Assembly: GCA_044228295.1 (NCBI GenBank) | Contig: JBGAVE010000008.1 | Span: forward strand, 15,235-79,234 | DNA: 64,000 bases | Origin: Nitrosomonas sp. | GTDB taxonomy: Bacteria; Pseudomonadota; Gammaproteobacteria; Burkholderiales; Nitrosomonadaceae | Direction: 5' to 3' | In this document: one piece after another, positions 13,932 through 52,369 of the stretch | How positions within the stretch are numbered: position 1 is the first letter of the stretch | Layout: the number at the start of each line of letters is the position of its first letter | Position numbers and translations under genes: made by a program | Notes under the pieces: model-generated | Seen by the model: only the letters and a program-made list of their open reading frames with translations | Told to the model about the DNA's origin: nothing | Databases searched by the model: none

Positions 13932-15443
13932 ATGTCACTTGCAGTGTTGTATAGCCGTGCTTTGTCAGGCATGGAAGCGCCGTTAGTGACTGTCGAAACG
14001 CATATCGCTAACGGATTACCTAGTTTTACGATCGTCGGACTTCCCGATACTGAAGTTCGGGAAAGTAAAGATCGCGTTAGATCCGCCTTGCAAAATTCCC
14101 ATTTTAAAATTCCTGCGCAACGAATTACGGTCAATTTAGCGCCTGCTGATTTGCCCAAAGAAAGTGGACGATTCGATCTTCCGATCGCGCTCGGTATCTT
14201 GGCTGCTACAGGACAAGTTCCTAAGGAAGAATTAGAGCAATATGAATGGGCGGGAGAGTTAGCCCTAACCGGAGAATTACGGCCGATTCGGGGCGCATTG
14301 GCAATGACGTATCATGCTGCTCAATCCGGGCGTCGTTTCGTGTTGCCCGAGCAAAATGCTACTGAAGCTGCGTTAGTAAAAAAAGCTACCATCTATGCGG
14401 CAAAATCGTTGCTGCAAATATGTGCACATCTCACAAAGCAAGCACGATTACCAGTTTTTCAGAGTAATTTGCCTCAGGATGTTGGCGATGAAAACAAAGG
14501 CTACCCAGATTTTGAAGATGTTAAAGGGCAAGGACATGCCAAGCGCGCTTTAGAAATCGCTGCCGCCGGAAAACATAGTATTTTGATGGTGGGGCCGCCA
14601 GGAACAGGGAAGTCGATGTTAGCAGCACGTTTTCCTGGAATTTTACCGCCAATGACCGAAGATGAGGCGCTGGAATCGGCTGCAATTCAATCACTGAGTC
14701 AGGGCAGTTTCAATATTTCCGAATGGAAACGCCGACCCTTTCGCGCACCGCATCATACGGCTTCTGGTATTGCACTGGTTGGAGGCGGTAGTTATCCACG
14801 GCCTGGGGAAATTTCTTTAGCACTGCACGGAATATTATTTTTAGACGAATTACCTGAATTCGATCGAAAAGTATTGGAAGTGTTGCGTGAACCATTGGAG
14901 TCAGGAAAAATAACGATTTCTCGAGCCGCTCGTCAAGCCGAGTTTCCTGCCCATTTTCAGTTGGTATCGGCGATGAATCCATGTCCCTGCGGCTACTTGG
15001 GGCACCCCTCTGGCAAATGCCATTGCACCCCCGACCAAATCGCCCGCTATCGCGGCCGAATCTCCGGCCCGTTACTGGATCGCATCGATATGCAGATCGA
15101 AGTCCCCGCCGTACCGCAACAGGAATTGATGAAACAACAAACAACAAGCGAGAAAAGCAGCACCATCCGCCAGCGTGTCGAGAAAGCGCACCAATTGCAG
15201 CTTGATCGGCAAGGAAAAACCAATAGCCGCTTGGGCGTGAAAGAAATCGACCAATTCTGTGCAATCGACAGCGCGAGCGAGAATCTGCTTAAACAAGCCA
15301 TCAGCCGTTTGAATCTATCGGCGCGTGCATATCACCGCATTCTGAAAGTCGCGAGAACGATTGCGGATTTGGCTGGGATCGAGAAAATCAACAATCAACA
15401 CATCGCGGAAGCGATTCAATATCGCAGACTAGACAAGCACTAG
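13932..15443 (+). CDS. comM: YifB/ComM Mg-chelatase-like AAA+ ATPase
   Basis: IVGLPDTEVRES, GPPGTGKS, FLDELPEF, NPCPCG and LSARAYHRILKVARTIAD motifs. Confidence 0.95.
   Translation: MSLAVLYSRALSGMEAPLVTVETHIANGLPSFTIVGLPDTEVRESKDRVRSALQNSHFKIPAQRITVNLAPADLPKESGRFDLPIALGILAATGQVPKEELEQYEWAGELALTGELRPIRGALAMTYHAAQSGRRFVLPEQNATEAALVKKATIYAAKSLLQICAHLTKQARLPVFQSNLPQDVGDENKGYPDFEDVKGQGHAKRALEIAAAGKHSILMVGPPGTGKSMLAARFPGILPPMTEDEALESAAIQSLSQGSFNISEWKRRPFRAPHHTASGIALVGGGSYPRPGEISLALHGILFLDELPEFDRKVLEVLREPLESGKITISRAARQAEFPAHFQLVSAMNPCPCGYLGHPSGKCHCTPDQIARYRGRISGPLLDRIDMQIEVPAVPQQELMKQQTTSEKSSTIRQRVEKAHQLQLDRQGKTNSRLGVKEIDQFCAIDSASENLLKQAISRLNLSARAYHRILKVARTIADLAGIEKINNQHIAEAIQYRRLDKH
14982..15443 (+). 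repeat. comM 3' segment duplicated at 33116-33574 (left island boundary)
   Basis: Homology starts at TGTCC (CPCG codons); 38-bp exact match between 14991-15028 and 33125-33162. Confidence 0.9.
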
Positions 15444-15500
15444 AATTATTACGCCCACTGCTGATATGTAGCGTGAATTTATCTGGAAAATCTTCCTTTC

Positions 15501-15520
15501 AATGTGATATTTCTCACATT
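15501..15520. promoter_or_regulatory. CRP-family consensus box
   Basis: AATGTGA-TATTTC-TCACATT, a perfect TGTGA-N6-TCACA. Confidence 0.65.
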
Positions 15521-15550
15521 TATTTTGAATAAGCTCAATATAAAATTCAG

Positions 15551-15566
15551 ATGTCCAATTAGACAT
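15551..15566. promoter_or_regulatory. Palindromic operator candidate
   Basis: ATGTC-CAATTA-GACAT. Confidence 0.4.
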
Positions 15567-15585
15567 AAATTACTCAACATTCTCA

Positions 15586-15599
15586 TTGATCTACATCAA
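15586..15599. promoter_or_regulatory. FNR-family consensus box
   Basis: TTGAT-CTAC-ATCAA, a perfect TTGAT-N4-ATCAA, about 75 nt upstream of the 15675 start. Confidence 0.65.
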
Positions 15600-15674
15600 C
15601 ATCTAAAATCAGAAACATACGATATGTTGCCAGTTACAGATCATAAGATGACTCAATTTTATTAGGAAGAAATT

Positions 15675-16529
15675 ATGGCACTTATACCCGATGCAAATGT
15701 AGAAGGACCAATTGCCCAACTTCCAAACTTGAATGGTGATCAACTTACGCTAATAGTAGCTGGCGTTACAGTAATCGCTGATTTGAATACGATTATCCGA
15801 ACACCAACCCGACAACTTAATCTTGTAGAAGTCGTAGACCCAACTCCATTCCCAGGACGAGCAGATCCGGGATTTGTTAACGGTTCTGCACAAGCCGATG
15901 GTTCTTACGATACGATAAATGGTATTTTGCGTGCGAACAGGCTTTTTCTTGAACCAGGCGAGCATGTACTGGTAGGGCCAATTGCAAATCCAACCGAGAC
16001 AGGTGCCGTCGTTAATGGTGTCAATGCAGAGCTTACCAATGACACTAGAATTCCTTCCTATCAAATACTCAATGAATTTGGATTCCCTATTCAACCAGCT
16101 TCTATCCCAGTGGACTCAACAACAGCAGCTGAAGGGTATTATGACGGGAATATACTCCGTGCTTTCGCAATTTCAGTGGATGCGCCAGATGCAATATTGA
16201 AAATAAATCCTATTATTCAACCACAGATCTCGCTCTTGCGCGCACGGACCGTTGAAAAAGATAGCACGTACCGGTTAGATATTCGCGGGGCTGTGACGTT
16301 GCATCACTCTCCAGGATTTCAGCCACAAGAGATTGATGTTTATCGATTGGATGATAACAATGTAACAGCATTTCTTGGCAGGGCAAGAACAAGGAGAGCT
16401 CCAGGTACTTCTTTTGGAAAATACGATCAAGAATTCCGTAATCTTCCTGGAGAGCCACCTACACGCATACGAGTAATAAATACTACTGCAATGAATCAGC
16501 CTAGTGCTGATCTCTATGTTGATTTGTGA
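15675..16529 (+). CDS. Hypothetical beta-rich protein, first gene of the multicopper oxidase cluster
   Basis: 284-aa ORF with AGGAAG RBS; no recognisable family. Confidence 0.75.
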   Translation: MALIPDANVEGPIAQLPNLNGDQLTLIVAGVTVIADLNTIIRTPTRQLNLVEVVDPTPFPGRADPGFVNGSAQADGSYDTINGILRANRLFLEPGEHVLVGPIANPTETGAVVNGVNAELTNDTRIPSYQILNEFGFPIQPASIPVDSTTAAEGYYDGNILRAFAISVDAPDAILKINPIIQPQISLLRARTVEKDSTYRLDIRGAVTLHHSPGFQPQEIDVYRLDDNNVTAFLGRARTRRAPGTSFGKYDQEFRNLPGEPPTRIRVINTTAMNQPSADLYVDL

Positions 16530-16603
16530 TTATTGTAAAGATTGTTTGTTAAATTATGGTGTTAGCATGTTTTCTGGTGAATTGGGAGAGGCTTTAACCA
16601 TGC

Positions 16604-16631
16604 TTGACATAATGTTTTTATCAATTAGAAT
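16604..16631 (+). promoter_or_regulatory. Sigma70 promoter candidate for the giant multicopper oxidase
   Basis: TTGACA-N16-TAGAAT, about 85 nt upstream of the ATG at 16715. Confidence 0.5.
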
Positions 16632-16714
16632 TACTATAAGTATCAAAAAAATATCTTTGATCTTCTAACGCAATATTTACATATTGAAGATCAAGAAAAA
16701 TGAGGGGGGTGGCC

Positions 16715-19700
16715 ATGAAGTTCAAACATAAGTTTCTACGGATAGTGATTTCATTGTTAAGCTTTTTTGTTGTTGGTTCTATATCGGCACAAATGCCACA
16801 ATTAAAAGGCAGTTCGAATTCTCTAGTTAAACAACCAGGTTTTCAGAAGCTCGAAAGCTGTCGGAATGCTTTAGTAGCCGATGTGGTGGCAATTGACCAT
16901 CCAATGGTTTTCAATCGACTTGGTGCGCAGAATGTGAACTGGATGATGTATGCGTTGCGTCATGACATCATTGATGTGGCAAGCAATAAAACATTGGATT
17001 ACACAATTGTAGGTGATCAATTATTTGCAAGTGCCAAAGCAAACAATACCAGTCGCGGCATTGCATTAAGACCCGATTTGCGTCCTCGTCCATTGGTACT
17101 TCGTGTGGCAGCAGGGGGTTATCTAAAAGTAAATTTTACTAATTTACTGCATGCGGCATCTAATCCTTTTGATTATCCTGATCAATTTTTAGGTATTCAG
17201 CATCCAACAGAACATTCTCCAATAGACCAACTGGGATTAAGTGCAAGTAATTTGCATAAAACCTATACCCTGGATGATCAAGTGGCGAGTCGTACAGTAG
17301 GATTTCACCCACAGGGACTAGAGTTAGTTAATAGTATGAATGATGACAGCTCTTATGTTGGAAAAAATAGTAACAGCATGGTTGCTCCCGGGCAAACTAA
17401 AACATATTGTTTCTATGCTCCAAAAGAGGGTGCCTACCTGGTTAGTAGTGATGGTGCTGTTTTTGGTGGTGAAGGTACTTCAGGCAATAGTGGCGTTGGG
17501 TTATTCGGTGCTGTAACAGTGCAACCAAGTAGCGGGAAAAATAATAAAAATGGGAATCTAGGAACACGATTTTATCGTGCCCAAGTAACAGAAGAAGAAT
17601 TACGGTTAGCAACTACCGGAACAACGCCAAGCGGACAACCGATCATTAATTACGAGGCAATCTATCCTAATGACTGTCCAACAGGTCCCTTGTGTAAAGA
17701 AGGTAAATCTGGAAAACCTATTCTCAATATGGTGCATAACAATCGTATTATTCACGGAGATATCAATGCATTGATTGTTGGTCCCCATAAGGATGGTAGT
17801 TTTTCAAAAGATACTTATCCGCTAGAATCGCTAGGTGCGAAGAACCCGGCTTTACCTAATCGTCTAGAACCTTTTCGTGAATTTGTATCTATTTTTCACG
17901 ATGAAAATGCTGCAACTCAGGCTTTTCCCTACTTCTTCGAGCATCCTGAATTAAAGCACACGCTTCATGGAGTTCGGGATGCATTTATGATTAATTATGG
18001 TTCTGGGGGTGTTGGTGCAGAAATCATAGCCAATCGATTAAAAGCTGGACCTATGCAGGATTGCCTAGATTGCGCGTATGAAGAGTTCTTTTTGTCATCG
18101 TTTGCGGTCGGCGATGCTGCTATGCTGGTTGATAAACCGACCAATTTGCGAATCAGCCAGTGCCAACCTGAATATCTACCAGGCTCAACAGAATTTAATA
18201 CTTTTTGCGTTCAGCCTCCGGATCAAAAAGCAATGGAAGCTTATTACCCGCATGATCCAGCGAATGTACACCATAGCTACATCGGCGATTTCGTAAAGTT
18301 TCGTAATTTACATTCTGGTAAAGAACAGCACATTTTTCATTTGCACAATCACCAGTGGTTGTTTAATCCCAATGACGATAACTCCAATTATATTGATGCT
18401 CAGGGCATAGGTCCGGGTTCTGGCTACACCTATGAAATTGCCTATGGCGGTTCGGGTAATCGCAATAAGACCGTTGGTGATGCTATTTTCCATTGTCACT
18501 TCTATCCGCATTTTGCACAAGGTATGTGGTATATGTGGCGCAATCATGATGTCTTTGAAGGAGGAACACCACTTGAAGTGAGTCAAACACCTACAGGTTT
18601 TCACAAGGAACCTTTTGGCTTAATGCATGGAAAACCCGCATCAAAATCGAGAGCATTACCTGATGGTGAAATCATTTCAGGAACACCTATCCCTGCTATC
18701 GTGCCATTGCCAGGAAAAGGTATGGCACCAATGCCAGAACCGGTTCATATCACGCAAAAAGTAAATGGATTGGGTTCAAAAGCTGAGTTGGTAAATTCAT
18801 TTAGTGAAAAAACGAAAAATCCAGGTTATCCTTTTTGGGTTGCTGGTGTTACTGAACATGGTAGTCATCAATCATCGATTGGGTCACGCCCAACAACTCC
18901 ACCACTGGATATGTCAAGTATACCTGGCGTAGTCGATGGATGGGATGGGGGATTGCCTCGACATGCGTTAGCAGGCTATCTGGCGGGTGGAGATGCGGAG
19001 TCCAAAATAAGCCGGTTCACAGCTGAAAAGCATCTTAAAAAAGCAAAACCGATTTATTACCCGGAAAAAGGTACTGCTCTTGAGCAAATAGCAATGGAAT
19101 TTCATGCAAAACCTAGACCAGGTCACACAACGAGTGCTATAGACATGGCAGGTAGCGTTTTTGCTTCTTTTTTCGCTACAAATGGTGCAAAAGCGGTTCC
19201 TGGCGCACCCTATAATGAACCTTGTATTGATGATCGGGGAGAATTACTAAAAACTGGGGGAAATGGCCAATTCTTTGGTGGCACACCGGGAACTTATATT
19301 GATGTTGATCCAGCGCTTTTACCTATGGGAATTGAGTTTGGTGCTGACAAACCCCGTGTATACAAAGGCGCTAATCTCCAGCTCGATGTAATATTTAACA
19401 AATTGGGATATCACTATCCGCAGCAACGCATATTGACACTTTGGCAAGATGTGGCCTCACTACTCAATGAAACGCGCCCTCCGGAACCCTTAGTGATACG
19501 AATGAATACATTTGATTGCGCGATGTATGCACACACTAATCTTGTTCCTCATTTTTTCTATGGCGACGATTACCAAATCACAACGCCTACCGACGTTATT
19601 GGGCAACATATTCATTTGCCGAAATGGGATCTGACTTCTGCAGATGGTGGGGCGAATGGATGGAATTATGAGGATGGTACTTTCTCACCGGGTATGGTTC

Positions 19701-22700
19701 GTGAGCGCATTTATGCTATTAATAGCTGGAATGACTCTAACCCAGGAAATACGGTTTCTACACTTGATGGAGTTCTTAAGTTAGAACCATTGGTACATCC
19801 TTATTTCAATGCAACTAATATCCCTAACTTTCAGCAGCCCGATTGTACAAACTTATGGCAAAGTGTGGGGGGCGATGCACACGAATTTGAGGTTCATTAC
19901 GGTATGCGTTACAAATGTGATTGGTTAGGCGCTCGAACCACCCTACAACGCTGGTTTTCTGACCCGCTGGTCAATAAAGAAGGCATACATAGAGGACTAG
20001 GTGTTACTTTTACACACGATCACCTAGGGCCATCAACGCATCAGCAATTAGGGCTTTATGCCACAATGCTGACAGAACCGCCTGGATCTGAATGGCGACA
20101 CAATGAAACTGGCGAGAAGCTTTATAATGCGGCGGTGCGTATGGATGGTGGCCCCACTTCCTGGCAAGCAGTGATAACTGCAAAAAATGGAACTTTGATC
20201 GATTTGGATAAGAATGGAAGCGATGATTCACATCGCGAATTTTTCCTTCAATTTGGTGATTTTCAGCATGCATATGTGAAAGGTGCTTATTATGGCGTGA
20301 CTGAGAAGAAGGGTTATGGCTGGATGTGGGATCCAGCTCAAACAGCTAAACCTACTCCAGACAGTTTTCGCGCAGCAATCAATCCCTCGTTCAGGAAACC
20401 TGCTCAACCGGTGTTCCCAGATATCATTGCTTTTGAGCCCTATTGCCCAGGAGGTAAGGGCACTAGTCCGAATAGCTTACTACCCGGTTCGGTGTATCTC
20501 ACGGCAACGGATTTCAGTAATACGCAATTATATGATGCGTCAGGTAGACCTAACCGTCCCTGCGCTGAAGCGATCTCGGCTGATGATGTCGGTATGATGG
20601 TTGTTAATTATCGCAATGAGCCGATCGGTGCGCGCGTGTACGATCCCATTCAAAACAAACAAGTTACTGGAATTCAAGGAGACCTAGCATTTGCAATGCA
20701 TAATATGAATCGTGCATGGTCACCTCTTAATACTACTAAAGGCCTTGCACCGTATCCCACAGATTTAACTTTTCACATGATTCCCACTGATCCGTTCACT
20801 CCCATTATGCGAGCTTATTCGGGTGATCGAGTACGTGTAAAAGTTCAAGGGGGGTCCCATGAACATGAGCACAATGGTTCCATTAACGCAATGGCTTGGT
20901 TACAAGGGGGGTCTGGTTTCGGACGAGCTCCTCATTCTGGCTGGAAAAATTCCCAGAATACCGGTTTGTCTGAACAATTTACATTTGATGTATCGATTAC
21001 GGACTATTGGAGTGACACCTATTTACATGATCGTATGTATACGGTTGATTCCAGTCAAGACGGTTTATGGAATGGCGTATGGGGTATTTTACGCAGTAAA
21101 AATACTCGAGATGCTGGAGATGATTCACTGGTTACGCTACCTAGTAATCCTATTCCAACAGTGCTTTTGCCAGGACAAGGAATCGGCTCAGATAATGTTT
21201 GCCCAGCAAATGCTAGGGTTCGTTCATATGAAGTTGTCGCTGTACTAGCCAATCGTGCTCTTGATAATTCTCTAGGTGTCACGATTCCTTCAGCACGTAA
21301 TACACAAAATGCTACTCCGGGTTCTTCCAAGCTTAATCCGGGTGGAGGCACGCTTGTCTATAACCCGCGTGCAACAAACATAACCATGATGGTTGATGAT
21401 GGTATGGGAGGGAAAAAACAGGAAGTTTTCGGCGTTGGTCCCCTTCATGATCCTACGGCCATACTTCTTGTGCGTAAGGGAGATTTGGATCTGGCAAACA
21501 AAATTAAACCAGGAAAGCCGGTAGAACCTATCGTGTTAAGAGCTGCGGCTGGGGAATGTATTCAAGTGATTTTGCATAATAAATTACCGGAAAATCCCGA
21601 AGAAATGCCTGATCTTGATGGTTATACTTCGGTTTCTGGGATTATTCACCGTGATACGAACGATCCAAATGGTTCTGTGACATCATTCAATAACAATTTG
21701 ATACGTCCGTCCAACGAGATAGGGCTACATCCTCAACTGGTCCATTATAACGTCCAAACTTATGATGGTAATAACGTTGGTGTCAATAAGCGCAGCACTA
21801 TTAAGCCCGGAGAAACCATCGTTTATCAGTGGTACGCTGGTGCGGTCGAGCTTTCTTCAAATGGAGGATTGGTGTGTGATGATATTGCTAATGATTCGAA
21901 CGCATATGAGAAATTAAGTCTTTTTGCACAGCTTTCCAAAGAATTTAATGGCTTACCGACGCGTTCTCCATTGATAACTTTGCCAGAAGAGCCTCGAAAA
22001 GTTTTTCAAAGGATTATATTTTCATTGTCGAATGAAGATGAAATAAGATTTGATCCAAAAATAGAAGAGCGACTATTTGATATAGTGGTTCAGCAAGGTT
22101 TTTTTAATATCTATGCTGATGCTCTGCAAAATAAAGTAAATACTCTCGACGTAAGTAATCCATCAGATAATGTTAAGCCTGAAGCTTTATTTAGAGAGTT
22201 ATTAGCTACAAAATCTGATAACCAAACGCAATTAATTCAGCGTAGTGCGGATAATGAATCATTATTTGACAGTACGAAATACGTTGATCCAATTAAAGAT
22301 CTTACTTTTGGAAAGATTCAGGAGATTCGAAAAAGTTTGGCAAATAGCTTGATAAGTGGACTTGCCAACGAAACTCAAGCTGAGAGAATTGCTTTAAAAA
22401 TAGCTGATAAGCTTGTGATTAATTATTTTTATGAATCCATAGATTATCTTGCTAAAACTAGTCCCTATGCATGGAGAAGGGATTTTTTCAACGAGAAATT
22501 TAAGCCAGAATTAAATAGAGAAAAAATACGCTTAGTTAGATTAGATAATGCTTGTCGGTATGAACCTATTGAATTTGGCGGCACTAATTTGACACCTCCC
22601 GATCGGATCAAACAAGGACAAAAAGGTGCAGTAGGCGCATTGATTGTTGAACCAGAAGGCGCTTCTTGGTTTAGTAGTTCTATGGATAATGCAATTGATC

Positions 22701-25450: not shown

Positions 25451-26037
25451 TGTACGCGAAATTTAGCGTTATTTTGATCTCGCTGATAGCAACCATAGGG
25501 TGGGCTCAACCGCCTGAAAATTTAAAAAAACACACGAAAATAAGCAACGCACATCAAACACAACTTGTTTTGCCGAATATCATCGTTGTAGACAGTCAGA
25601 ATCGTGAACATCGACTGTTGAATTTATTGCAAGATCAAGTTGCAATTGTTAATTTTGTCTTTACTTCCTGCACGACAATTTGTCCTGTGCTTAGTATGAC
25701 CATGCAAGCTATCGAAAAGCAGTTGCAGAATCAATTGGGGAAAGGTGTTATTTTGATTTCTATTTCTGTCGATCCAACAAGGGATACACCGGAGAAATTA
25801 CGCATATATGCAGAAAAATTAGGTGCAGGGCAGCACTGGTATTGGTTGACCGGAAGAGTGTCAGAGATTAATCAAGTGTTGAAAGCATTTGGAATTCCAG
25901 TCGGACGTCCCGAAGATCATCCGCCGGTTATTCTGGTAGGTAATACAAATTCTGATCATTGGTTACGTTGGGTTGGCATCCCATCCCCAGAAACCATCAT
26001 TGACGCAATTGATGTGGTTGCCAGAGAAAACTTGTAG
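25450..26037 (+). CDS. SCO1/SenC copper chaperone
   Basis: FTSCTTICP CxxxC motif, ISVDPTRDT and a conserved His (EDHPP). Confidence 0.9.
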   Translation: MYAKFSVILISLIATIGWAQPPENLKKHTKISNAHQTQLVLPNIIVVDSQNREHRLLNLLQDQVAIVNFVFTSCTTICPVLSMTMQAIEKQLQNQLGKGVILISISVDPTRDTPEKLRIYAEKLGAGQHWYWLTGRVSEINQVLKAFGIPVGRPEDHPPVILVGNTNSDHWLRWVGIPSPETIIDAIDVVARENL

Positions 26038-26042
26038 AGGAA

Positions 26043-26630
26043 ATGATGAAAAAAGTCACTCTATCACTAGTACTGATATTGGTTAGCTTGATATCAACAA
26101 CCATTCAAGCTTCGGCAACTAATGCACAACCAGAGAATCGACTGGAGCGTGCACGCAATTATTTTGGTGATGATCTTTTAATCGATCAGAATGGGGTGTC
26201 ACATCGATTTGTCAGCGATTTGCTGAGTCAGCATGTGGTATTAATTAATGTTATTTTTACTCACTGCCAGGATGCCTGCCCGATGCAAACTCAAAAACTG
26301 CAAGTCGTTCGGAAACAACTTGGAAAGCATTTTGGCTCTCAGATTGCTTTCTTATCATTATCCGTGGATCCCAAACGTGATGATTCTACTGCACTAAAAG
26401 CTTTTGCAGAGAAGCAGCAGGCTAATGTTCCTGGGTGGTCGTTTCTTACGGCGGATGAAACAACCATGGCAAAAATTTTGGGTCGCCTAAATCAGTGGAC
26501 GGATGATCCTAACAATCATAGTACGTTATTGATTGCTGGCAACGCACGCAATGCGCACTGGGTAAAATTACGACCAGATTCACCGCCTGAACGCATTGTG
26601 GCTGATTTACTTCGTTTGATTGGACAGTAA
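26043..26630 (+). CDS. SCO1/SenC copper chaperone (second copy)
   Basis: FTHCQDACP CxxxC motif, LSVDPKRDD and NNHST. Confidence 0.9.
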   Translation: MMKKVTLSLVLILVSLISTTIQASATNAQPENRLERARNYFGDDLLIDQNGVSHRFVSDLLSQHVVLINVIFTHCQDACPMQTQKLQVVRKQLGKHFGSQIAFLSLSVDPKRDDSTALKAFAEKQQANVPGWSFLTADETTMAKILGRLNQWTDDPNNHSTLLIAGNARNAHWVKLRPDSPPERIVADLLRLIGQ

Positions 26631-26632
26631 AA

Positions 26633-27991
26633 GTGCTGCGATTGCACTATGTTTTTTTTCTATTTAGTTTCTGCTTAATTAGTCCTATTAACCTTGCACT
26701 GGCAACTAGTTCAATAGACCTTGGACGTTCAATCTATGAAAAAGGCGTCGGTCGAGATGGCAGAGAAATCGGTGCAATAGGACATGGCAGTGTTTCCTTG
26801 AAAGGTGCTGCTATAGCGTGTATCGGTTGTCACGGTATTGATGCGCGTGGCGGTGGCGAAGCCTTTGTTCAAGTGCCCGATATTCGTTGGATGAATCTCA
26901 GTAAACAATACCCAGCAAGGCGTATGGGGGCTACCGAAACATCCTACGATCAATCAAGTTTCTCCACGGCAGTGCGAACCGGCATAACGGCGACTGAGAG
27001 AAAATTAGATCCGGTAATGCCACGTTTTGATTTGGCAGACGATGAAATCAATGGCTTGATCGTATATCTTAGCTCCATTGATCAATTAAAAAATGCAGAA
27101 CAAGCTCGGTTAGTTATTCTTGGTTTGCTTCCCAAGCCAGGTCGGAACGCTCTCGCTGATGCGTTGGATTCGAAACTTAAAAATTGTTCTCCGAATGAAA
27201 ATGGTTTTCCGATTGCAGCCATCGACACGATTTATTTTGATACGCCAGAAGATGCAATTATTAAGTTAATGGAGCGTTTGAAAGAAAATCCAAATGCGCT
27301 GATTCTCGCGCCTTTCTTGCTGGGTTGGGAACATCAATATGCTAAAGCGATGCAACAATACAATGATGTGCCAACAGTTCTACCATTCTCCCTGTTAAAT
27401 CCACCCGATGAGAACAACTGGATTTTCTCCTTCCCAGGTCTCGAATCTCAAATATTAGCTTTACTAAAATCTGCAAAAGCAGAAGGCTATACGCAATTAC
27501 GCATTTACTCTGAGCCAGAAAATACCCTTGGCGTAAAACTCGCTACAGTCGCTATTGAAATGGCTAATGCGCATGGAATGTCGACCATAGCAGATGTATC
27601 AGAAAGAACGCATAAACAAGGAAAGATTGCTTCATTATGGCTAAAACAATTTAACCCAAATCAGGTAGAACAGAGCTTACTAAAAGATGAGCTGATGCTT
27701 GTACCGGTTCTGTTTTTCAAACCTAATCAATCGAACGAAAACTCTCAAAAGAATCTGCTGCCACAACGGCACATAGCTTACCCATATAATCCAAAAGTTG
27801 GTGAAAATGGAACATGGCGTAAGCCAGTCGATGTTTGGGCTGGGGCGGGTTGTAAATTTTTGTCACTCATTGGCGAAAAATCGCTAAGTCTCAATAAACT
27901 ACCAGAAATCTTAAAATGGGAGGATCATCTCTTTTTATATAACAGGCCCAATCTTGATTTACTCTCAGATCAGGTGTTTATTTATAAGTGA
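26633..27991 (+). CDS. Cytochrome c fused to a periplasmic-binding-protein-like domain
   Basis: Signal peptide, CIGCH heme motif, MPRF axial Met; C-terminal alpha/beta region. Confidence 0.8.
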   Translation: MLRLHYVFFLFSFCLISPINLALATSSIDLGRSIYEKGVGRDGREIGAIGHGSVSLKGAAIACIGCHGIDARGGGEAFVQVPDIRWMNLSKQYPARRMGATETSYDQSSFSTAVRTGITATERKLDPVMPRFDLADDEINGLIVYLSSIDQLKNAEQARLVILGLLPKPGRNALADALDSKLKNCSPNENGFPIAAIDTIYFDTPEDAIIKLMERLKENPNALILAPFLLGWEHQYAKAMQQYNDVPTVLPFSLLNPPDENNWIFSFPGLESQILALLKSAKAEGYTQLRIYSEPENTLGVKLATVAIEMANAHGMSTIADVSERTHKQGKIASLWLKQFNPNQVEQSLLKDELMLVPVLFFKPNQSNENSQKNLLPQRHIAYPYNPKVGENGTWRKPVDVWAGAGCKFLSLIGEKSLSLNKLPEILKWEDHLFLYNRPNLDLLSDQVFIYK

Positions 27992-28042
27992 ACATAGTTA
28001 CCATGATTAAAATTAGGGCCTGTTAACACTATTTGATATAAT

Positions 28043-28456
28043 ATGGTGATGGAAATCACCGAAACTCAATATCAACAGATCGAACACTGCATGCCGCGCC
28101 AGCGTGGCAATGTCAGTCATTCCAATCTACAAATTCTCAATGCTATTCTGTATGTTACCGAACATGGTTGCAAATGGCGCGGACTACCCAAACGCTTCGG
28201 TAACTGGCATACCATCTATACCCGAATGAATCGATGGACAAAGAGTGGCGTGCTGCAAAAAGTTTTTGAGCAGTTGCAGCAACAACAAATCATTCGCATC
28301 AAAATTGAAGCCGTTTCGATAGATAGCACCAGCATCAAAGTGCATCCTGATGGTATTGGTGCATTAAAAAAAACGGCCCGCAATCCATCGGTAAGTCCAG
28401 ATGCGGTTGGACCACCAAAATTCATCTGGTTGCCGCAGATTCCAGAGCAGCCATAA
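28043..28456 (+). CDS. IS5 transposase OrfA
   Basis: GCKWRGLPKRFGNWHTIYTRMNRW and IDSTSIKVH. Confidence 0.88.
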   Translation: MVMEITETQYQQIEHCMPRQRGNVSHSNLQILNAILYVTEHGCKWRGLPKRFGNWHTIYTRMNRWTKSGVLQKVFEQLQQQQIIRIKIEAVSIDSTSIKVHPDGIGALKKTARNPSVSPDAVGPPKFIWLPQIPEQP

Positions 28457-28479
28457 TCTTTGCCTTATCTCCGGGGCAT

Positions 28480-28806
28480 GTGCATGATGCGCCGGAAGGA
28501 CGGCAACTCCTCCTGGCGCTTGGCCCCGTCACTTCACCTACTCATCTACTGATGGATCGCGCTTATGAAGGTGATCAAACCAGACAACTTGCACTGGAGC
28601 TCGGTTATATCCCGGTTGTCCCGCCCAAAACTAATCGGTTGGAGCCCTGGGAATATGACCGCGCCATGTACAAAAAACGCAATGAAATCGAAAGATTATT
28701 CCGCAGACTCAAAGGATTTCGTCGAATATTCTCCAGATTCGACAAACCGGATGTCATCTTTCTCTCTTTCATCCATTTCGCTCTTATCGTTGAAGCACTT
28801 AGGTAG
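28480..28806 (+). CDS. IS5 transposase OrfB (joined to OrfA by a probable -1 frameshift)
   Basis: MDRAYE and YKKRNEIERLFRRLKGFRRI DDE motifs. Confidence 0.85.
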   Translation: MHDAPEGRQLLLALGPVTSPTHLLMDRAYEGDQTRQLALELGYIPVVPPKTNRLEPWEYDRAMYKKRNEIERLFRRLKGFRRIFSRFDKPDVIFLSFIHFALIVEALR

Positions 28807-29024
28807 TGTTAACAGGTCCTAGTTTGAAGTAAGTTACTTAAACCAAAGGAACTCTACGATGAAGAAGTCGGAATAGAGCCCAGCAACGGAGCGTCCTAGA
28901 TTTTGTGTAAACGGTGATTAATAATGCTGAGACATTCTTTCTAAAAACAACAGTGATCATTGTTGCGGTTAGGCGTGACACTGTACAATCCTTTTACCTG
29001 GATTCCTCAATGCTTGATCGATAA

Positions 29025-30794
29025 TTAATTACTTTGGGATAATTCCAATAACTTCTGAATGCCCACTGGCTCTTCTTTGAGCAAAGGCACGACGGCATAA
29101 CGTTTTGCATGCATGGTGGATACTGTCTTTATATCAGCAAGCTCATTACTAGCGCGCTGACATAATAAGGGTGACTGCACAGTAGTTGCTGCTATGCTGT
29201 TATTGATGATCCATGCCCACGGTTCAATTCCAGCGCGGCGCAAATCAGCTTGCAGGTTGGCAGCTTCCAGTACTGGTGTCGTTTCCGCCAATGTGACCAG
29301 TAGTATTTTGGTTTGCTTGGGATTTTGCAGTTGCATCATCGGCGTGGTGTAGTGCGCGATAGATTGATTATCCATTTGTTTGGCAACTTCGCGATGATAA
29401 GCGCCGGTGGCATCCAGTAACAATAATGTATGTCCTGTCGGTGCGGTATCCATCACCACGAATTTCTTTCCCGCCTCACGGATAATACGTGAGAATGCCT
29501 GAAATACCGCAATTTCTTCGGTGCAAGGCGAACGTAAATCTTCTTCCAGCAATGCTCTGCCTTGTGCATCCAGATGCGAGCCCTTGGTTTTCAGAACATG
29601 CTGCCGGTAGCGTTCGGTTTCCACGTGCGGATCAATCCGGTCAACCAGTAGATTATCCATAGCATCGCTGAGCGTTTCGTTTAAATGCGCTGCTGGGTCT
29701 GAAGTGGTTAAGTGTACTGATAAGCCTTGATGTGCAAGATTGACCGCGATGGCCGCGGCCAGCGTGGTTTTGCCAACACCGCCTTTTCCCATCAACATGA
29801 TCAAACCACAATCATCTTTGGCAATATCATCCGTTAAACTGGATAAGCTGGGAAATGGGATGGCAGGATGGTTTGATTTATTTTCACCATCGACAGACAG
29901 ATCATCAACCAATAGTTTCCGCAAAGCTGTCAATCCGACCAGGTTAAACGGTTTTAGTACAATATGATCGCAAGGCAATTGGCCGATGACTTCCGGTATA
30001 GTTGCCAAAGTTCTTTGCTCGCGCTGGAAAATTGCGGTTGCTAATGGATCCTGTGCTGTTTCCGCCTGTGGAAACAATCCATTGATGACTAAAAATTGTT
30101 TCTTCAATCCAATGGCTGCTAATTCTTCGTGTGTCCGCGCTACTTCGCGTAACGTGGATTGTTGCGCGCGAGCTACCAATACCAGCCGGGTGCGCTGCGA
30201 ATCGGCGAGCGCATCTACCGCCGCTTTGTATTGTGTGCGTTGCTTCTCCAAACCGGCCAGCGGGCCAAGACATGACGCATTACCTTTGCCTTCCTCAAGG
30301 AAATCACTCCATGCGCCGGGTAGTTGCAGCAATCTTATGGTATGTCCGGTTGGCGCGGTATCGAAAATAATATGATCGTAATCCGCTGTCAACGCCGAAT
30401 CGACCAACAAAGCGGTAAATTCATCGAAAGCTGCAATTTCGGTGGTGCATGCGCCCGACAGTTGTTCTTCGATGCCTTTGACAACCGTGTCCGGCAATAC
30501 ACCGCGTACCGGATTGACAATACGATCACGATAGATTTGCGCTGCTGCCTGCGGGTCGATTTCCAAGGCAGCTAATCCAGGTACTGCGGTAATCGCTGTC
30601 ATCTTATTGCCAATCGTCATACCGAACACCTGACCCACGTTGGAAGCCGGATCGGTGCTGACTAATAATACCCGCTGACCGGCATCGGCCAGCGTTATCG
30701 CCGTAGCGCAAGCTAACGAAGTTTTGCCGATACCGCCCTTGCCAGTAAAGAATAGAAATCGCGGCGGTTGATCAAGGAATTTGAGTTGTGCCAT
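29025..30794 (-). CDS. arsA: Arsenical pump-driving ATPase
   Basis: Two GKGG(I/V)GKT P-loops and two DTAPTGHT motifs; start taken at MAQLKFL. Confidence 0.96.
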   Translation of the reverse strand: MAQLKFLDQPPRFLFFTGKGGIGKTSLACATAITLADAGQRVLLVSTDPASNVGQVFGMTIGNKMTAITAVPGLAALEIDPQAAAQIYRDRIVNPVRGVLPDTVVKGIEEQLSGACTTEIAAFDEFTALLVDSALTADYDHIIFDTAPTGHTIRLLQLPGAWSDFLEEGKGNASCLGPLAGLEKQRTQYKAAVDALADSQRTRLVLVARAQQSTLREVARTHEELAAIGLKKQFLVINGLFPQAETAQDPLATAIFQREQRTLATIPEVIGQLPCDHIVLKPFNLVGLTALRKLLVDDLSVDGENKSNHPAIPFPSLSSLTDDIAKDDCGLIMLMGKGGVGKTTLAAAIAVNLAHQGLSVHLTTSDPAAHLNETLSDAMDNLLVDRIDPHVETERYRQHVLKTKGSHLDAQGRALLEEDLRSPCTEEIAVFQAFSRIIREAGKKFVVMDTAPTGHTLLLLDATGAYHREVAKQMDNQSIAHYTTPMMQLQNPKQTKILLVTLAETTPVLEAANLQADLRRAGIEPWAWIINNSIAATTVQSPLLCQRASNELADIKTVSTMHAKRYAVVPLLKEEPVGIQKLLELSQSN

Positions 30795-30814
30795 GCAGTT
30801 GGCTCTAGTTTGCG

Positions 30815-31165
30815 TTAGCAACAACCGCCGCAGCAGCTGGATTCTTCGGTTTCTTCCTCCACAGCAACGCCAGTCCAGCGTGCAAGTTCATTGCGATTTG
30901 GATAGCGGCCTGCCAATGCCACTTCTCCATCGACGAGAATCAATGGCAGCGCTTCAGCACCGGAACGTTCCAAGAATGCTTTTACTGTGTAATTATCCGC
31001 AAAAGCCATCGGCTGTTGTGCCAGATTAAAGCGCTCAATGGTAGCACCTTGTTGTTTGGCCCAGTCGACATCAGCGGAAAAGCTGACCAATTCTTGGTCT
31101 ACATCGGAACCGCAAACGCCTGAGCTACAGCATGAAGCAGGGTCAAATATTTGTATGGTTGTCAT
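30815..31165 (-). CDS. arsD: Arsenite metallochaperone
   Basis: FDPASCCSSGVCG, RFNLAQQP and C-terminal CCGGCC. Confidence 0.95.
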   Translation of the reverse strand: MTTIQIFDPASCCSSGVCGSDVDQELVSFSADVDWAKQQGATIERFNLAQQPMAFADNYTVKAFLERSGAEALPLILVDGEVALAGRYPNRNELARWTGVAVEEETEESSCCGGCC

Positions 31166-31244
31166 TTTGATTCTCCAATAGTTAAATTACAAAGACTCGA
31201 TAAACTAAATAATCAATTTAAGGCTATCGCTATTATCTGGTGTG

Positions 31245-31730
31245 TTACTGCTTGAATATCAAGGTTCCAATGTAGTCCAGCTTAGTCCTAAAAGCGGAAG
31301 GATTTTGCTGCCAATCATCGAGCGGTAGTGATAAAAAAGTCTCGATACCTTCACGCAAGGCTTGATAAGCCTGTGCGAATGCCGTGTTGATTTCTTCCTC
31401 GGTTCCCGTTGCTTCAGCAGGATCATCGACACCCCAGTGCGAGCGCAGTGCGGGCCCAAGATATGCCGGACAGGTTTCACCGGCGGCGTTGCCGCACACA
31501 GTAATTACAATATCTGGTGTAGCTGGCAAGTTATCCCACGATTTGCTGCAAAGTCCTTCGGTTGCAATACCTTCGCGTTCGAGTAAGGCGAGTGAACGCG
31601 GATGAACTTGGCCAGTCGGTTTACTGCCTGCGCTCATCGCTTGCCAGTCTTTTGGTGCAAGATGATTAAAAGTAGCTTCCGCAAGAATGGAGCGGCAGGA
31701 ATTTCCGGTGCAAAGAAACAATACATTCAT
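31245..31730 (-). CDS. arsC: Arsenate reductase (LMW-PTP fold)
   Basis: LCTGNSCRS, ITVCGNAAGETCP and HWGVDDP; start taken at MNVLFL. Confidence 0.93.
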   Translation of the reverse strand: MNVLFLCTGNSCRSILAEATFNHLAPKDWQAMSAGSKPTGQVHPRSLALLEREGIATEGLCSKSWDNLPATPDIVITVCGNAAGETCPAYLGPALRSHWGVDDPAEATGTEEEINTAFAQAYQALREGIETFLSLPLDDWQQNPSAFRTKLDYIGTLIFKQ

Positions 31731-31732
31731 GA

Positions 31733-32152
31733 TCAGGCCGCGCAGCAAGTTTCGGTTCTAGTGGGAATGGCGATATCCTGTCCAAATACCGGGATTGCGG
31801 TCAGTGAATGAAACGCTTCCCAGGCGGTGCTTTGCGGCTCAACTGTCCAGTATTTATTTGACGATGCGTAGCAACTTTGTATATTCTGCTGTTCTATAGT
31901 AGGCAAACCGGCTTGCATCAAACGCTGACTTACTTCGGTTAAGGTATCGTCAAAATCAATCTGGATTCCCACATGATCCAAACCCGGTTTTGCACCTCGC
32001 GCTGATACGGCGAAATTGATATATGGATCGTGCATCCATTTTGCGTAATCCAGTTTGCTGACGGATGTTTCGACACCGAATAATGCTGAGTAAAAGCGGA
32101 TACCATCCTGTAGGCTATCGACGGCAATATGGACATGAAAGCGTTTTATCAT
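31733..32152 (-). CDS. arsI: ArsI/CadI-like VOC metalloenzyme, degenerate (SCYA in place of CCYA)
   Basis: RFHVH, LDHVG and WEAF; AGGAGA RBS before the ATG at 32152. Confidence 0.75.
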   Translation of the reverse strand: MIKRFHVHIAVDSLQDGIRFYSALFGVETSVSKLDYAKWMHDPYINFAVSARGAKPGLDHVGIQIDFDDTLTEVSQRLMQAGLPTIEQQNIQSCYASSNKYWTVEPQSTAWEAFHSLTAIPVFGQDIAIPTRTETCCAA

Positions 32153-32174
32153 TGTCTCCTTCGTTAAGTTATAT

Positions 32175-32504
32175 TTAGCTGTTTTTTTCATCGCAACAAA
32201 CTTCAACAATGCCACAAGATGTACCGGCGCAACAATTCTCGGTGAAATAACTCATTAGTGCATTCATGGTTGCAAAATTTGCTGAATAATAAATGAAGCG
32301 GCTTTCCTGCCGGGCGATCACCAGTTCCGCATGCGTTAATTCTTTTAGATGAAAAGACAGCGTTGCATTGGGAATGCCCAATTCCTTGGCAAGTTGACCG
32401 GCCGGAACGCCGAATTCGCCAGCCTGAACCAGTGTTCGGAATATCGTCAGGCGAGTTTCTTGAGCCAGAGCCACAAGAGCTTTAATTGCAATATTCATTT
32501 CCAT
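32175..32504 (-). CDS. arsR: ArsR-family repressor
   Basis: ALAQETRLTIFRTLV, TLSFHLKEL and TENCC. Confidence 0.92.
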   Translation of the reverse strand: MEMNIAIKALVALAQETRLTIFRTLVQAGEFGVPAGQLAKELGIPNATLSFHLKELTHAELVIARQESRFIYYSANFATMNALMSYFTENCCAGTSCGIVEVCCDEKNS

Positions 32505-32506
32505 GC

Positions 32507-32522
32507 TTCCATTATCATGGAA
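32507..32522. promoter_or_regulatory. ArsR operator candidate
   Basis: TTCCAT-TATC-ATGGAA inverted repeat just upstream of the arsR start; related site at 53159-53174. Confidence 0.55.
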
Positions 32523-32646
32523 ATCAATATTTTCTGTCAATACTTCTTGAGCCTAGTATATGAATACACAAATCCATAATTTTTTTACACCCACCAGCAT
32601 TAAGTGAATAGATTAGTTGGATTTATTTGCTATGCCGTTCATTCCA

Positions 32647-33099
32647 TTACCTTCTCATATCTTCAAAAACCACTTTCGCATCTATACCCAGAAATGAAGC
32701 AATTAATCGCCGATGTTCATGCTTCATAATCGTCCCACCACACTCCCAACTTGACCAGGTACAAGGATCAACACCTGGATTCTTGGCCGCAACTTTCTGC
32801 GACCACCCCAAGGATCTCCGCTTGGTCAACAACAACTCAGCAATCGAACTTGGATTGGGTAATGTAGGATCATAACCAAGAAACTGAATTAATTTTCCAG
32901 TGTGGTTAATACTTGGTTTCCGGTAATTCAATTCCCAGTTCAGAACTGTTTCGGCAGCAACTCCTAATAGCTTGGCTAATTGGGGTTGGGGCAATTTAAG
33001 AAAAAGTCTACGTTTTAATACATGCTCACCAAGGGTTTTAGGCGCAAAATCATAAGGCTTAGGAATGAATGACTTAAGAGAAATCCGGGTATATTGCAA
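32647..33099 (-). CDS. Tandem XRE helix-turn-helix protein
   Basis: Two HTH-like units (TLGEHVLKRR..QLAKLLGV..TVLNWE and LLTKRRSLGWSQ..TWSSWE). Confidence 0.75.
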   Translation of the reverse strand: MQYTRISLKSFIPKPYDFAPKTLGEHVLKRRLFLKLPQPQLAKLLGVAAETVLNWELNYRKPSINHTGKLIQFLGYDPTLPNPSSIAELLLTKRRSLGWSQKVAAKNPGVDPCTWSSWECGGTIMKHEHRRLIASFLGIDAKVVFEDMRR

Positions 33100-33115
33100 A
33101 AAGGCAACGCAACTC

Positions 33116-33574
33116 TGTCCTTGTGGCTACTTGGGGCACCCCTCTGGCAAATGCCATTGCACGCCCGATCAAATCGCCTGCTATCGCTGCCGAATCTCCG
33201 TTCCGTTACTGGATCGGATTGATATTCAAATTGAAGTACCTGCAATTCCACAGCAAGAACTTATCCGTCAAAATACCAAAGGAGAGAAAAGCGCCGCCAT
33301 TCGTAAGCGTGTTGAGAAAGCGTATCAACGACAGCTTGATCGTCAGGGAAAAAGTAATAATCAGTTAAGCGTCAAAGAAATAGAGCAGTTTTGCACGATT
33401 GATAGCATCAGTGAAAATTTATTGAAGCAAGCAATCAGTCGCTTGAATCTATCCGCGCGAGCATATCATCGTATCCTGAAAGTCGAGAGAACGATTGCAG
33501 ATTTAGCGGGGTCCGAGAAAATTACTAACCAGCATATTGCAGAAGCAATTCAGTATCGTAGGCTGAATAGGTAA
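33116..33574 (+). pseudogene. comM: Displaced 3' fragment of comM (right island boundary)
   Basis: CPCGYLGHPSGKCHC...IAEAIQYRRL with no 5' part; substitutions at residues conserved in the intact copy (IACY, RCR, KVER). Confidence 0.92.
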
Positions 33575-33789: not shown

Positions 33790-35232
33790 TCAGATCGGCT
33801 GGTCCGGCTTTGACTGCAATGGGATCCACCGATCTCTCTCATACCATGCTCTTGCTCTTACATCGATTTGTAATAGAGACGAATCAGGAGATATTCCTTC
33901 CGGTAAAGTCATACCAAGAAGCACGAAGATCACTCGTTCCAGCAGAATCGCTAAGTGTCTCTCAGCAACCATAATAACGTTCGGCGATACGAAAGAGTTG
34001 CTCCCGTGTGTCAATGCATTGCGAACCTCTCTCAAGCCGCGCTTTTTGCCCGACCCTAGAACCGGCCAGAGATCTGCACAATATTGATTCATTGCGGGGT
34101 ACACGCGAAGGAATGATTCGAACTTATCTCGAATACTAGGCCGATTTACGACACCGATAAGTCCTTCCAGTCGTGCTGAGATTTCATAAACGTTCTCGCC
34201 ACCCTCCACGACTACGGTTTTTTTCAGCTGTTCGAGAAGCTGAATCAACGCATGGGTTGTGACAGCAGGACTTCTTGGCGTTTGGTCCTGAGCCCAAGCA
34301 AACTCGATCACCCTTTCCAGTGCGGAAAACATAAATAAAAAGCGATCTTTGGTTCTCAAGTTGTTATGAGGGTTGATCGCCACTGAAAGATGCCGCACCA
34401 GCGATTGAGTTTTTGCATCGGCGTTTCCATACGCGTGGGCCAAGCACGTAGCGCACTCCACAAAGACTTGAGGTCTAGCGACAAATTTGCCACGATGCTC
34501 ACGCGCGGAATGTGTCACATTCGGCTCAAGGGAGTCGATCCAGGTGGAGACGGTCAGATCGTCGGTGTATCTCCAGCCGTGCAGGGTAACTGCTTGCCGA
34601 AACAGAACCGACAGAATCTCAAGCGAACTTCTGAATTTTGCAACCATTTGATCGACATTGATTGAACTTTCCGATGGCAGATCTACTATCGCATCGAAAC
34701 CGGCGATCACCGTTGCACCAGGAATCTCTGTGTCTTGGTGGTGAATTGTCGTCCACGCTGCGACGAATCTCGTTGTGCCGAGGTTCGGTAGATTCAGCAC
34801 AAAAAGATCTTCTGTATGGGATCTGTCTCCGAAAAAAATAAGGTTTGATTCCGACCTTAGGTAGGAAATGGGAGCTAGATGGAAGCGGATCTCTCTTCTG
34901 GTGTCCATTGGAGGATACCGGATTGTCAGCCTTCCGACATGGAGCAGCTCTATGGTTTTCAGTCCGAGAGTGCTTTGCGAAGACATAGGAAAGCGGTGCC
35001 AATGAACTTCCTGCATAGTAATCGTGAATGCACCACATTTCCCCGACAGCTCACACGGATTGCGAGGCGGGGTTTTAGTGATATGCTGGGCAGGCATTGC
35101 AACGTGGATCAGTGACTTTTGGCCGCCTACGTTAGGCGGCTGGATTTCGCAATAGACAGGAAGCACGGCTCCGTCAGCGCCTCCCAACTCGGCGTCAAAA
35201 TCGAACTTAATCATTCGAATCCTCAGAACCAA
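33790..35232 (-). CDS. ApeA-like HEPN-domain protein (candidate antiphage RNase)
   Basis: C-terminal FMFSALE helix and RNALTH (Rx4H) motif; GC visibly higher than the flanks; probable start at 35214. Confidence 0.6.
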   Translation of the reverse strand: MVLRIRMIKFDFDAELGGADGAVLPVYCEIQPPNVGGQKSLIHVAMPAQHITKTPPRNPCELSGKCGAFTITMQEVHWHRFPMSSQSTLGLKTIELLHVGRLTIRYPPMDTRREIRFHLAPISYLRSESNLIFFGDRSHTEDLFVLNLPNLGTTRFVAAWTTIHHQDTEIPGATVIAGFDAIVDLPSESSINVDQMVAKFRSSLEILSVLFRQAVTLHGWRYTDDLTVSTWIDSLEPNVTHSAREHRGKFVARPQVFVECATCLAHAYGNADAKTQSLVRHLSVAINPHNNLRTKDRFLFMFSALERVIEFAWAQDQTPRSPAVTTHALIQLLEQLKKTVVVEGGENVYEISARLEGLIGVVNRPSIRDKFESFLRVYPAMNQYCADLWPVLGSGKKRGLREVRNALTHGSNSFVSPNVIMVAERHLAILLERVIFVLLGMTLPEGISPDSSLLQIDVRARAWYERDRWIPLQSKPDQPI

Positions 35233-35264
35233 TTTTGTATCGTTTAAGTATAAGAATCCTCAGG

Positions 35265-51827: not shown

Positions 51828-51869
51828 ATCAATATACGTCCATTGCTATCGTGTCTTGCTCCGTAGTGA

Positions 51870-52367: not shown

Positions 52368-52369
52368 GA

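Follow-up and report, generated by a model that had tools for sequence, protein, structure and literature searches.

Several described systems resemble parts of the locus reported here. SXT/R391 elements integrate in prfC, restore the end of the gene and carry their own integrase. Cis-mobilisable elements (CIMEs), such as those lying beside ICESt1 and ICESt3 of Streptococcus thermophilus, are decayed relatives of integrase-bearing integrative and conjugative elements (ICEs) of the same site. Integrative mobile elements exploiting XerCD (IMEX), among them CTX-phi, TLC-phi with its XafT factor and the gonococcal genetic island, are known integrase-less integrators that insert at dif and carry dif-like sites; in TLC-phi, a small helix-turn-helix (HTH) activation factor is found beside the attachment site. 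The gene comM is the classic target of AbaR/Tn6022 of Acinetobacter, Tn7-like transposons that disrupt it with a 5-bp duplication. Gene-end-restoring islands with their own integrase are also described in dusA (PMC4482086), and a 95-kb island with Int and RitABC, integrase genes and a 14-bp repeat occupies comM of Acidithiobacillus ferrooxidans (PMC10322971), in agreement with an earlier reading of the present DNA without database searches (the sequence-only reading), which had named comM as a recurrent integration target. Here we analyze an island at comM in a 64,000-nucleotide (nt) stretch of Nitrosomonas sp. (the window; positions are window coordinates and L-numbers designate the compared loci or strains). 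This island supplies its own replacement comM 3′ end, encodes no integrase, and belongs to a widespread, apparently undescribed family of comM cassettes capped by an XRE-family gene.

In the window, the last 462 nt of comM (153 codons) are present twice, once as the end of an intact gene (the left copy) and once beyond the cargo of the island (the right copy), with 76.6% identity over the full 462 nt; a repeat search returned 14969-15268 and 33103-33402 at 77%. Homology between the two copies starts exactly at the TGT codon of Cys351, the first residue of the CPCG motif, and stops at the stop codons, while the flanks are unrelated. This confirmed that the 3′ third of comM occurs twice from CPCG onwards, as had been read from the letters alone. 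The island thus has the trait of classical islands, namely target-derived direct repeats at both ends and a reconstituted comM open reading frame (ORF). Like the islands of dusA and prfC, it lies inside a conserved housekeeping gene, supplies a substitute gene end and keeps the function; unlike them, it has no dedicated tyrosine integrase beside the junction. Its target is that of AbaR/Tn6022, but comM is left intact and the element is not Tn7-like. It is also that of the A. ferrooxidans island, but without the integrase.

The window organism belongs to the oligotropha/ureae cluster of Nitrosomonas, and its closest relative is the metagenome-assembled genome GW-Mt58 (L001), with 96% nucleotide identity upstream of comM. 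Analysis of the G+C content at third codon positions (GC3) gave 0.37 for the comM 5′ part, 0.62 for the left copy and 0.42 for the right copy, in keeping with the shift to C/G-ending codons that had been noticed in the copy completing the gene and with the host-like appearance of the displaced one. The 5′ part is 94-96% identical to those of L001 and L032 as far as the junction, and about 71% identical to N. oligotropha-type genomes. For the left copy, the values are 84-86% with N. oligotropha types, 92% with the 3′ end of L001 and 78% with the functional 3′ end of L032; for the right copy, they are 92.4% with the functional 3′ end of L032 and 72-75% with N. oligotropha types. By these identity patterns, the right copy is the displaced native end and the left copy an import. 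The two copies do not both group with the host 5′ part, and the view that the element restored comM with a foreign 3′ end is upheld.

The displaced copy of the window is decaying. At 87 positions that are unchanged in 26 functional comM 3′ copies, it carries six substitutions (R>C, G>V, M>I, D>E, A>E and D>N) and the left copy none, so that the damaging changes suspected earlier are real; in most islands, the displaced copies show no change at these positions. Compared with L032, the ratio of nonsynonymous to synonymous substitution rates is 0.11 for the right copy and 0.04 for the comM 5′ part. The ORF at 33065-33574 (+, 169 amino acids (aa)), considered as a real ComM C-terminal gene, was rejected, its upstream extension being interrupted in L004 and L025. 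It is a chance fusion of 17 codons antisense to the start of the XRE gene with the comM fragment, and its counterparts in L027 and L072 are labeled as Mg-chelatase-like genes by annotation pipelines.

The same module, composed of a tandem-HTH XRE gene, a 16-nt spacer and a comM fragment beginning at the same codon, was found in about 40 loci from genomes and metagenomes. Window positions 32647-33574 contain all its parts, with the XRE gene, the AAAGGCAACGCnnCnn spacer and a CxCG-starting comM fragment, downstream of an intact comM. Comparison with 26 Nitrosomonas comM loci located the module downstream of intact comM in L004, L006, L010/L024, L023, L025 and L026, look-ups of XRE homologues added L027, L030, L070 and L072, and a metagenome scan added 38 loci. 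In many of the latter, the comM fragment is only 42-65% identical to the window ComM and the XRE protein only 40-60% identical, so their hosts are much more distant. Empty and occupied sites can be paired (L003 with L004; L013, L014 and L015 with L027), their downstream DNA being 88-95% identical, and in L026, L033, L047, L048, L070 and L072 two or three modules stand in an array, with divergent XRE copies inside those of L047, L048, L070 and L072. Among Nitrosomonas genomes, CP054179, OW818677 and CP091134 bear islands, OW818677 in array form, and CP091135, Nm45 and Nm75 have the empty site. Full-text literature searches returned no description of integrase-less comM islands or of the XRE module, and a preprint on 'hitcher' minimal islands does not mention comM.

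Cargo differs entirely between islands. The 4.7-kb island of L004 carries an ars operon alone, and the approximately 19-kb island of SG_bin4 (L010 11681-19084, L024 151-9416) a Tc toxin complex and a Tle1-type phospholipase. Other members hold a tyrosinase with a LodA-type oxidase, an ABC transporter, or HerA/DUF87-type ATPases with RadC; in L055, the cargo is reduced to 0.85 kb with a single gene that we read as a YajD-like HNH gene, and in L071, a TIR-NACHT protein adjoins an XRE copy without comM fragment. The Tc complex of SG_bin4, with a TcB/TcC-like protein bearing SpvB and RHS domains and a TcA-like protein, is an unexpected cargo for a nitrifier. Insertion sequence (IS) elements are frequent in and around the islands.

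All islands of the family share the XRE gene and no other, with orthologues of it at the same position in about 40 loci. The structure model of its product consists of two Cro/C1-type HTH domains (predicted local distance difference test, pLDDT, of 89) and no catalytic domain, its nearest structures are phage-type repressors (P22 c2, DicA and RstR; weak, E ≥ 0.03), its invariant residues are the usual positions of the HTH_3 fold, and no nuclease or recombinase family matched it in Pfam or NCBIfam. A simple promoter scan found no promoter for the gene. The wider XRE family counts 396 representatives at E ≤ 1e-30. Very long proteins built from many tandem two-HTH units also match the XRE profile; one of 4162 aa contains 24 such stretches.

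The non-coding spacer of 16 nt that separates the XRE start codon from the Cys codon varies less than the adjacent coding positions in 46 distinct loci. The spacer and the first XRE codons are near-invariant as DNA even where the identity of the XRE protein falls to 40-50%; this conservation beyond the coding neighbors argues for a function at the DNA level, likely as the protein-binding arm of an attachment site. The junction is exact and the same in every island, the element end (...GCAAAAAGGCAACGCnnCnn) abutting TG[CT]CC of the Cys codon, and the spacer is followed directly by a CxCG start in 41 of the 54 XRE copies. Elsewhere (L033 at 10592, L072 at 19449, L037 at 9995, L071 at 9992, and in L048, L050, L052 and L054), the spacer leads into TG and then into sequence without relation to comM, and in L037 and L071 a comM-like sequence picks up again about 38 nt past the spacer-TG. 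These copies may correspond to secondary targets sharing the TG, or to damage by IS elements or deletions.

According to the sequence-only reading, no recombinase gene lies between the two comM copies. This stands for tyrosine and serine recombinases, none of which was detected among the island ORFs of the window with Pfam and NCBIfam, but not for recombinases at large, an IS5-family DDE transposase being present at 28043-28806. We extended the scan to about 110 sister-island ORFs with the same databases, and to further loci with precomputed Pfam matches. None of about 130 ORFs drawn from some 28 islands (8 sequenced completely and about 20 in part) matched PF00589, PF00239 or PF07508, the recombinases found in islands of the family are IS transposases only, and no integrase lies upstream of comM in the window. 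Since the eight fully sequenced sister islands and the twenty or so partial ones also lack an integrase, its absence is a trait of the family and not a defect of the window copy. Of the two states that had been proposed for the element, a defective remnant or one mobilised in trans, the former is not borne out as far as the missing integrase is concerned; mobilisation in trans, or movement independent of a recombinase, is therefore the normal condition of the family.

These properties distinguish the comM cassettes from the other integrase-less systems. As in CIMEs, att-type repeats flank the islands, recombination and transfer genes are missing, units accrete in tandem at one site and the recombinase is presumed to act in trans. 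Unlike in CIMEs, no integrase-bearing relative was found at comM in about 60 loci, and all comM islands keep the XRE gene and the conserved end, giving them the look of purpose-built elements and not of decayed ones. IMEX are likewise devoid of an integrase and rely on a host recombinase, but the comM island has no dif-like site and replaces the 3′ end of its target, a protein-coding gene. Like integron cassettes, the comM units are small carriers of promiscuous cargo without their own recombinase, arrayed at one site with the newest nearest the insertion point; unlike integrons, there is no IntI beside the array and no attC hairpin or GTTRRRY core (inspection of the junction sequence revealed no attC boxes of the type RYYYAAC ... 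GTTRRRY), and each unit carries a 462-nt gene end and a regulator gene.

We consider it about an even bet (probability roughly 0.5) that the cassettes insert site-specifically at the Cys351 codon through a recombinase acting in trans, with the XRE protein as DNA-binding factor. The element would exist as a circle made of the comM 3′ end (from the Cys351 codon to the stop), a variable cargo and the divergently oriented XRE gene, whose start codon lies at 16 nt from the junction. It would enter the chromosomal comM by site-specific exchange where the Cys351 codon begins (TGYCC), the 3′ end of the element then completing comM and the native 3′ end being pushed downstream beside the XRE gene; further cassettes inserting at the same point would produce tandem arrays. 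The recombinase would be either a host enzyme or the product of an unseen helper, and the XRE protein would bind the conserved end, serving for regulation, targeting or directionality. Once the element is in place, its two 462-nt repeats would undergo RecA-type exchange and gene conversion, with mosaic repeats, cargo swapping and deletion as the outcome. A more tentative proposal, which we hold at clearly lower confidence, is an integron-like gene capture on comM, in which cassettes would be stacked at one codon by an activity that no cassette encodes, either a dedicated host or helper enzyme guided by the XRE protein and the 16-nt site, or a new activity that the XRE protein itself would nucleate.

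Site-specific insertion is favored because of the crossover in L026, the polarity of the window copies, their low identity, the conserved non-coding end and the occurrence of the module in hosts with very different comM genes. The array of L026 contains two units of 2928 nt without a single mismatch, and between them the identity breaks off 1 nt to the left of where the repeat starts. With the rightmost, host-like repeat, the unit agrees over no more than 8 nt, although identical runs of 27, 17 and 14 nt are available further in. Because the identity of the units stops there despite these longer inner runs, the exchange took place within a C followed by TGCCCCTG, in at most 9 nt at the junction. 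This position is the one expected of a site-specific recombinase and the least likely one for homologous recombination. The window repeats already show a foreign (left) versus native (right) polarity at their mismatches of nt 6 and 9, and the 77% identity between the copies makes them a poor RecA substrate.

Several observations weigh against site-specific insertion. The tight mapping of the crossover comes from a single array, that of L026, on one metagenome-derived chromosome, and the polarity in the window from two sites, nt 10-47 of both copies being of the native type. Hosts differ freely at synonymous positions in the target codons, a difficulty for any recombinase requiring an identical overlap region. 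No recombinase acting on the island was identified among the island ORFs, and no integrase-bearing helper was detected at the comM site in 26 Nitrosomonas comM loci or in about 45 XRE loci. No homologue of the XRE protein occurs among 72,556 plasmids, among 50,697 phages or in the IMG/VR viral contigs. Neither the joint of a circle, linking the XRE end (...GGCAACGCAACTC) to 14982, nor that of an empty site (14981 to 33116) was found in Logan contigs of 8 sludge or wastewater runs, which drop rare variants and thereby limit this search. Loose contig ends at 14973, 14982 and 33129 were uninformative, corresponding to comM of other strains or to an attR contig aligned to the left repeat. Finally, the mosaic structure and the junction-anchored identity tracts described below could leave homologous recombination explaining more than we credit it with.

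The main rival dispenses with any site-specific enzyme, the 462 nt of conserved gene serving as a portable homology arm for RecA-dependent Campbell integration of a circle, or for a double crossover in which the comM 5′ part would be the left arm and the displaced fragment the right one. The double crossover would follow transformation or conjugation, and the sharp junction would be inherited from the first element. No island contains a recombinase, and comM stays intact, which preserves transformation. At variable sites, the right copy of the window and the functional copy of L032 are of one native type, the left copy of the window and the functional copy of L001 are of the foreign type roughly from nt 50 to 420, and in L032 the displaced copy changes from foreign to native type at about nt 270, so that the switch points differ between the three strains. 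Repeats are identical inward from the junction over 389 nt in L027 and 71 nt in SG_bin4, and from nt 10 to 47 in the window. Cargo and XRE genes are also reassorted, the ars operons of the window and L004 sharing 81-96% amino-acid identity and their XRE proteins 61%. Such patterns show that homologous recombination acts on the repeats after insertion; the junction-anchored identity may be the product of Holliday-junction migration or of gene conversion from a fixed point. As an account of insertion itself, however, homologous recombination alone does not explain why the exchange in L026 used a run of 8-9 nt at the very edge of the homology, or why the polarity switches within the first 6 nt of such dissimilar window copies. 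It gives no role to the strongly conserved 16-nt end, and the comM fragments of the hosts, with as little as 42-65% identity to the window ComM, are too divergent for a spread by homology only. We therefore regard it as rather improbable, though it comes closest to competing with site-specific insertion.

The remaining explanations are less probable. That an ancient prophage or ICE in comM decayed to a repressor gene and its attR, now immobile and vertically inherited, with the gap between comM and the repressor gathering unrelated DNA by other means, would fit the resemblance of the XRE protein to phage repressors, the decay of the displaced copy in the window and the frequent IS elements. 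We judge it unlikely, given the close relatives with empty sites and matching downstream DNA, the arrays with several divergent XRE-repeat modules and one perfect duplicate, the displaced copies of most islands, without any change at invariant positions, the phylogenetically foreign left copy, and the differences in cargo and XRE alleles between sister strains. The XRE protein could itself be the catalyst, or recruit a host nuclease or resolvase to the junction as a new kind of site-specific system, since it is the sole gene shared by all islands and always lies 16 nt from the crossover, with near-invariant DNA under and beside its start codon; a protein predicted to hold two repressor-like HTH domains only, with invariant residues confined to fold positions and no enzymatic family match, makes this quite improbable. 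The odds fall further for an IMEX-like scheme in which the host XerC/XerD would act on a dif-like junction site, the XRE protein being an activation factor of the XafT kind. Integrase-less IMEX provide the precedent, and the protein has a weak match to the VC1465 activation factor family (NF040522; 27.8 bits against a cutoff of 70, limited to the HTH part, residues 30-58), but the DUF3653-type part of XafT is unmatched, the target is inside comM and not at the terminus, and no dif-like 28-mer exists at attL, attR or the reconstructed attP, the best scoring 16-17/28, below the null mean of 18.1 for random 140-nt windows. Local tandem duplication, an assembly artefact and an AbaR-type transposon can be regarded as refuted. 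The two copies differ in phylogenetic origin; the whole island is covered at even depth by contigs of four independent sludge metagenomes, which break at the 38-mer common to both copies, and this coverage, together with the same architecture in unrelated assemblies, excludes an artefact. Although comM is a known site for Tn7-like elements, the island has no tnsA/B/C or tniQ-type gene and no 5-bp target duplication, the flanking repeat being the 462-nt gene end.

The history of the window copy can be outlined. The window strain, L001 and L032 carry different cargo at the same junction, so the cargo is not ancestral at this locus and was acquired separately in each sister strain since their split; the XRE proteins of the window and L032 are 89% identical, more diverged than ComM (about 95-97%). 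Because the foreign 3′ end is common to L001 and a foreign patch is left in L032, the replacement end probably came from a GC-richer Nitrosomonas lineage before the split from L001 and L032 (about 5% nucleotide divergence). The window copy looks old and now fixed, given its decaying displaced end, the IS inside, the composite cargo, and the even, full depth at which it is present in the sludge metagenomes of many studies dated 2017 to 2025.

The positions of the features are collected in the table. The genes from 16700 to 27991 form a putative cluster for the oxidation of manganese or metal, present here in an ammonia oxidiser as cargo of the island; NF041487, which its largest product matches, is the family of the manganese-oxidizing multicopper oxidase MnxG. 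An IS5-family element separates this module from an ars operon without efflux pump gene; the same element (94% identical) directly follows comM in L021. The right-hand 4.6 kb of the island (28942-33558) is 86.5% identical to the whole L004 island, compared with 68-75% for the host backbone. The present 18-kb cargo thus looks composite, an L004-like ars cassette enlarged by or fused with the MnxG-like oxidase module and joined through the IS5-family element.

Features of the comM island and its surroundings in the window
Feature	Position	Strand	Remarks
Intact comM	13932-15443	+	503 aa; all three Mg-chelatase/ComM Pfam domains
comM 5′ two-thirds, codons 1-350	13932-14981	+	host-derived
Replacement comM 3′ end, left direct repeat (DR-L)	14982-15443	+	element-borne; in frame, Cys351 of CPCG to stop
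Junction-proximal tract	14982-15028	+	45/47 nt identical to 33116-33162, including a 38-nt exact run; crossover or gene-conversion zone
Hypothetical protein	15675-16529	+	284 aa; no Pfam or NCBIfam match
MnxG-like multicopper oxidase	16700-23560	+	2286 aa; NCBIfam NF041487, 1981 bits, under the equivalog cutoff of 3100
YVTN/cytochrome-D1-type beta-propeller protein	23561-25450	+	
Two SCO1/SenC copper chaperone genes	25450-26037 and 26043-26630	+	PF02630, E 2e-19 and 3e-16
Protein with cytochrome c domain	26633-27991	+	452 aa; PF00034
IS5-family IS	28007-28828	+	822 bp; 25-nt inverted repeats; DUF4096 and DDE_Tnp_1; transposase split in two ORFs (28043-28456 and 28480-28806)
ars operon of the island	29025-32540	-	arsR, arsI-like, arsC, arsD, arsA
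arsA	29025-30824	-	
arsD	30815-31165	-	
arsC	31245-31748	-	
arsI-like	31733-32215	-	
arsR	32175-32540	-	
Terminal tandem-HTH XRE-family gene	32647-33099	-	150 aa, TTG start; HTH_3 and HTH_31
16-nt spacer, AAAGGCAACGCAACTC	33100-33115	.	XRE start codon to Cys codon; right end of the element; once in the window
Displaced native comM 3′ end, right direct repeat (DR-R)	33116-33574	+	decaying fragment
Orphan ORF	33790-35232	-	480 aa; between displaced comM end and dead IS
Dead rve-type IS transposase	35263-36080	-	at least 4 in-frame stops and a frameshift
Second, chromosomal ars operon	50094-53240	-	arsD, ACR3-type pump, arsC, arsI-like, arsR

To the right of the second comM copy, the orphan ORF and the dead rve-type IS transposase precede rsmB-purN-purM. 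The orphan was considered as a candidate recombinase and rejected, since it matches no family and none of the other loci compared holds a relative; an older cassette could have left it as a remnant. The rve homology was likewise set aside, as it belongs to the dead IS, outside the island. Contigs often end at this IS because its pieces adjoin the comM islands of L001, L006, L023 and L027. A second, pump-bearing ars operon is encoded on the chromosome, with an ArsD nearly identical to that of the island; it and the pump-less island operon, with its arsA and arsD, may complement each other. No tRNA, tmRNA or Rfam match was found across the whole window, and the comM site is therefore not a tRNA-type target.

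If cassettes of this kind move as proposed, a whole class of horizontally moving islands would escape detection, because island finders seek integrases or tRNA targets, both absent here. The cassettes carry arsenic resistance, an MnxG-like metal oxidase, Tc toxins, lipase effectors, defence-type ATPases and metabolic genes, in globally distributed wastewater nitrifiers and in more distant bacteria. Were the integron-like reading true, ammonia oxidisers and other Proteobacteria would share genes for metal resistance, toxins, defence and metabolism through such capture. The family poses the question of what recombines so precise a site when the element encodes only a repressor-like protein, and the attachment site in which to look is small and well defined, with a 16-nt conserved arm and TGYCC. 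For the window genome, the insertion would explain the foreign gene end that completes an essential-looking competence gene, and would date the event before the split of the three sister strains.

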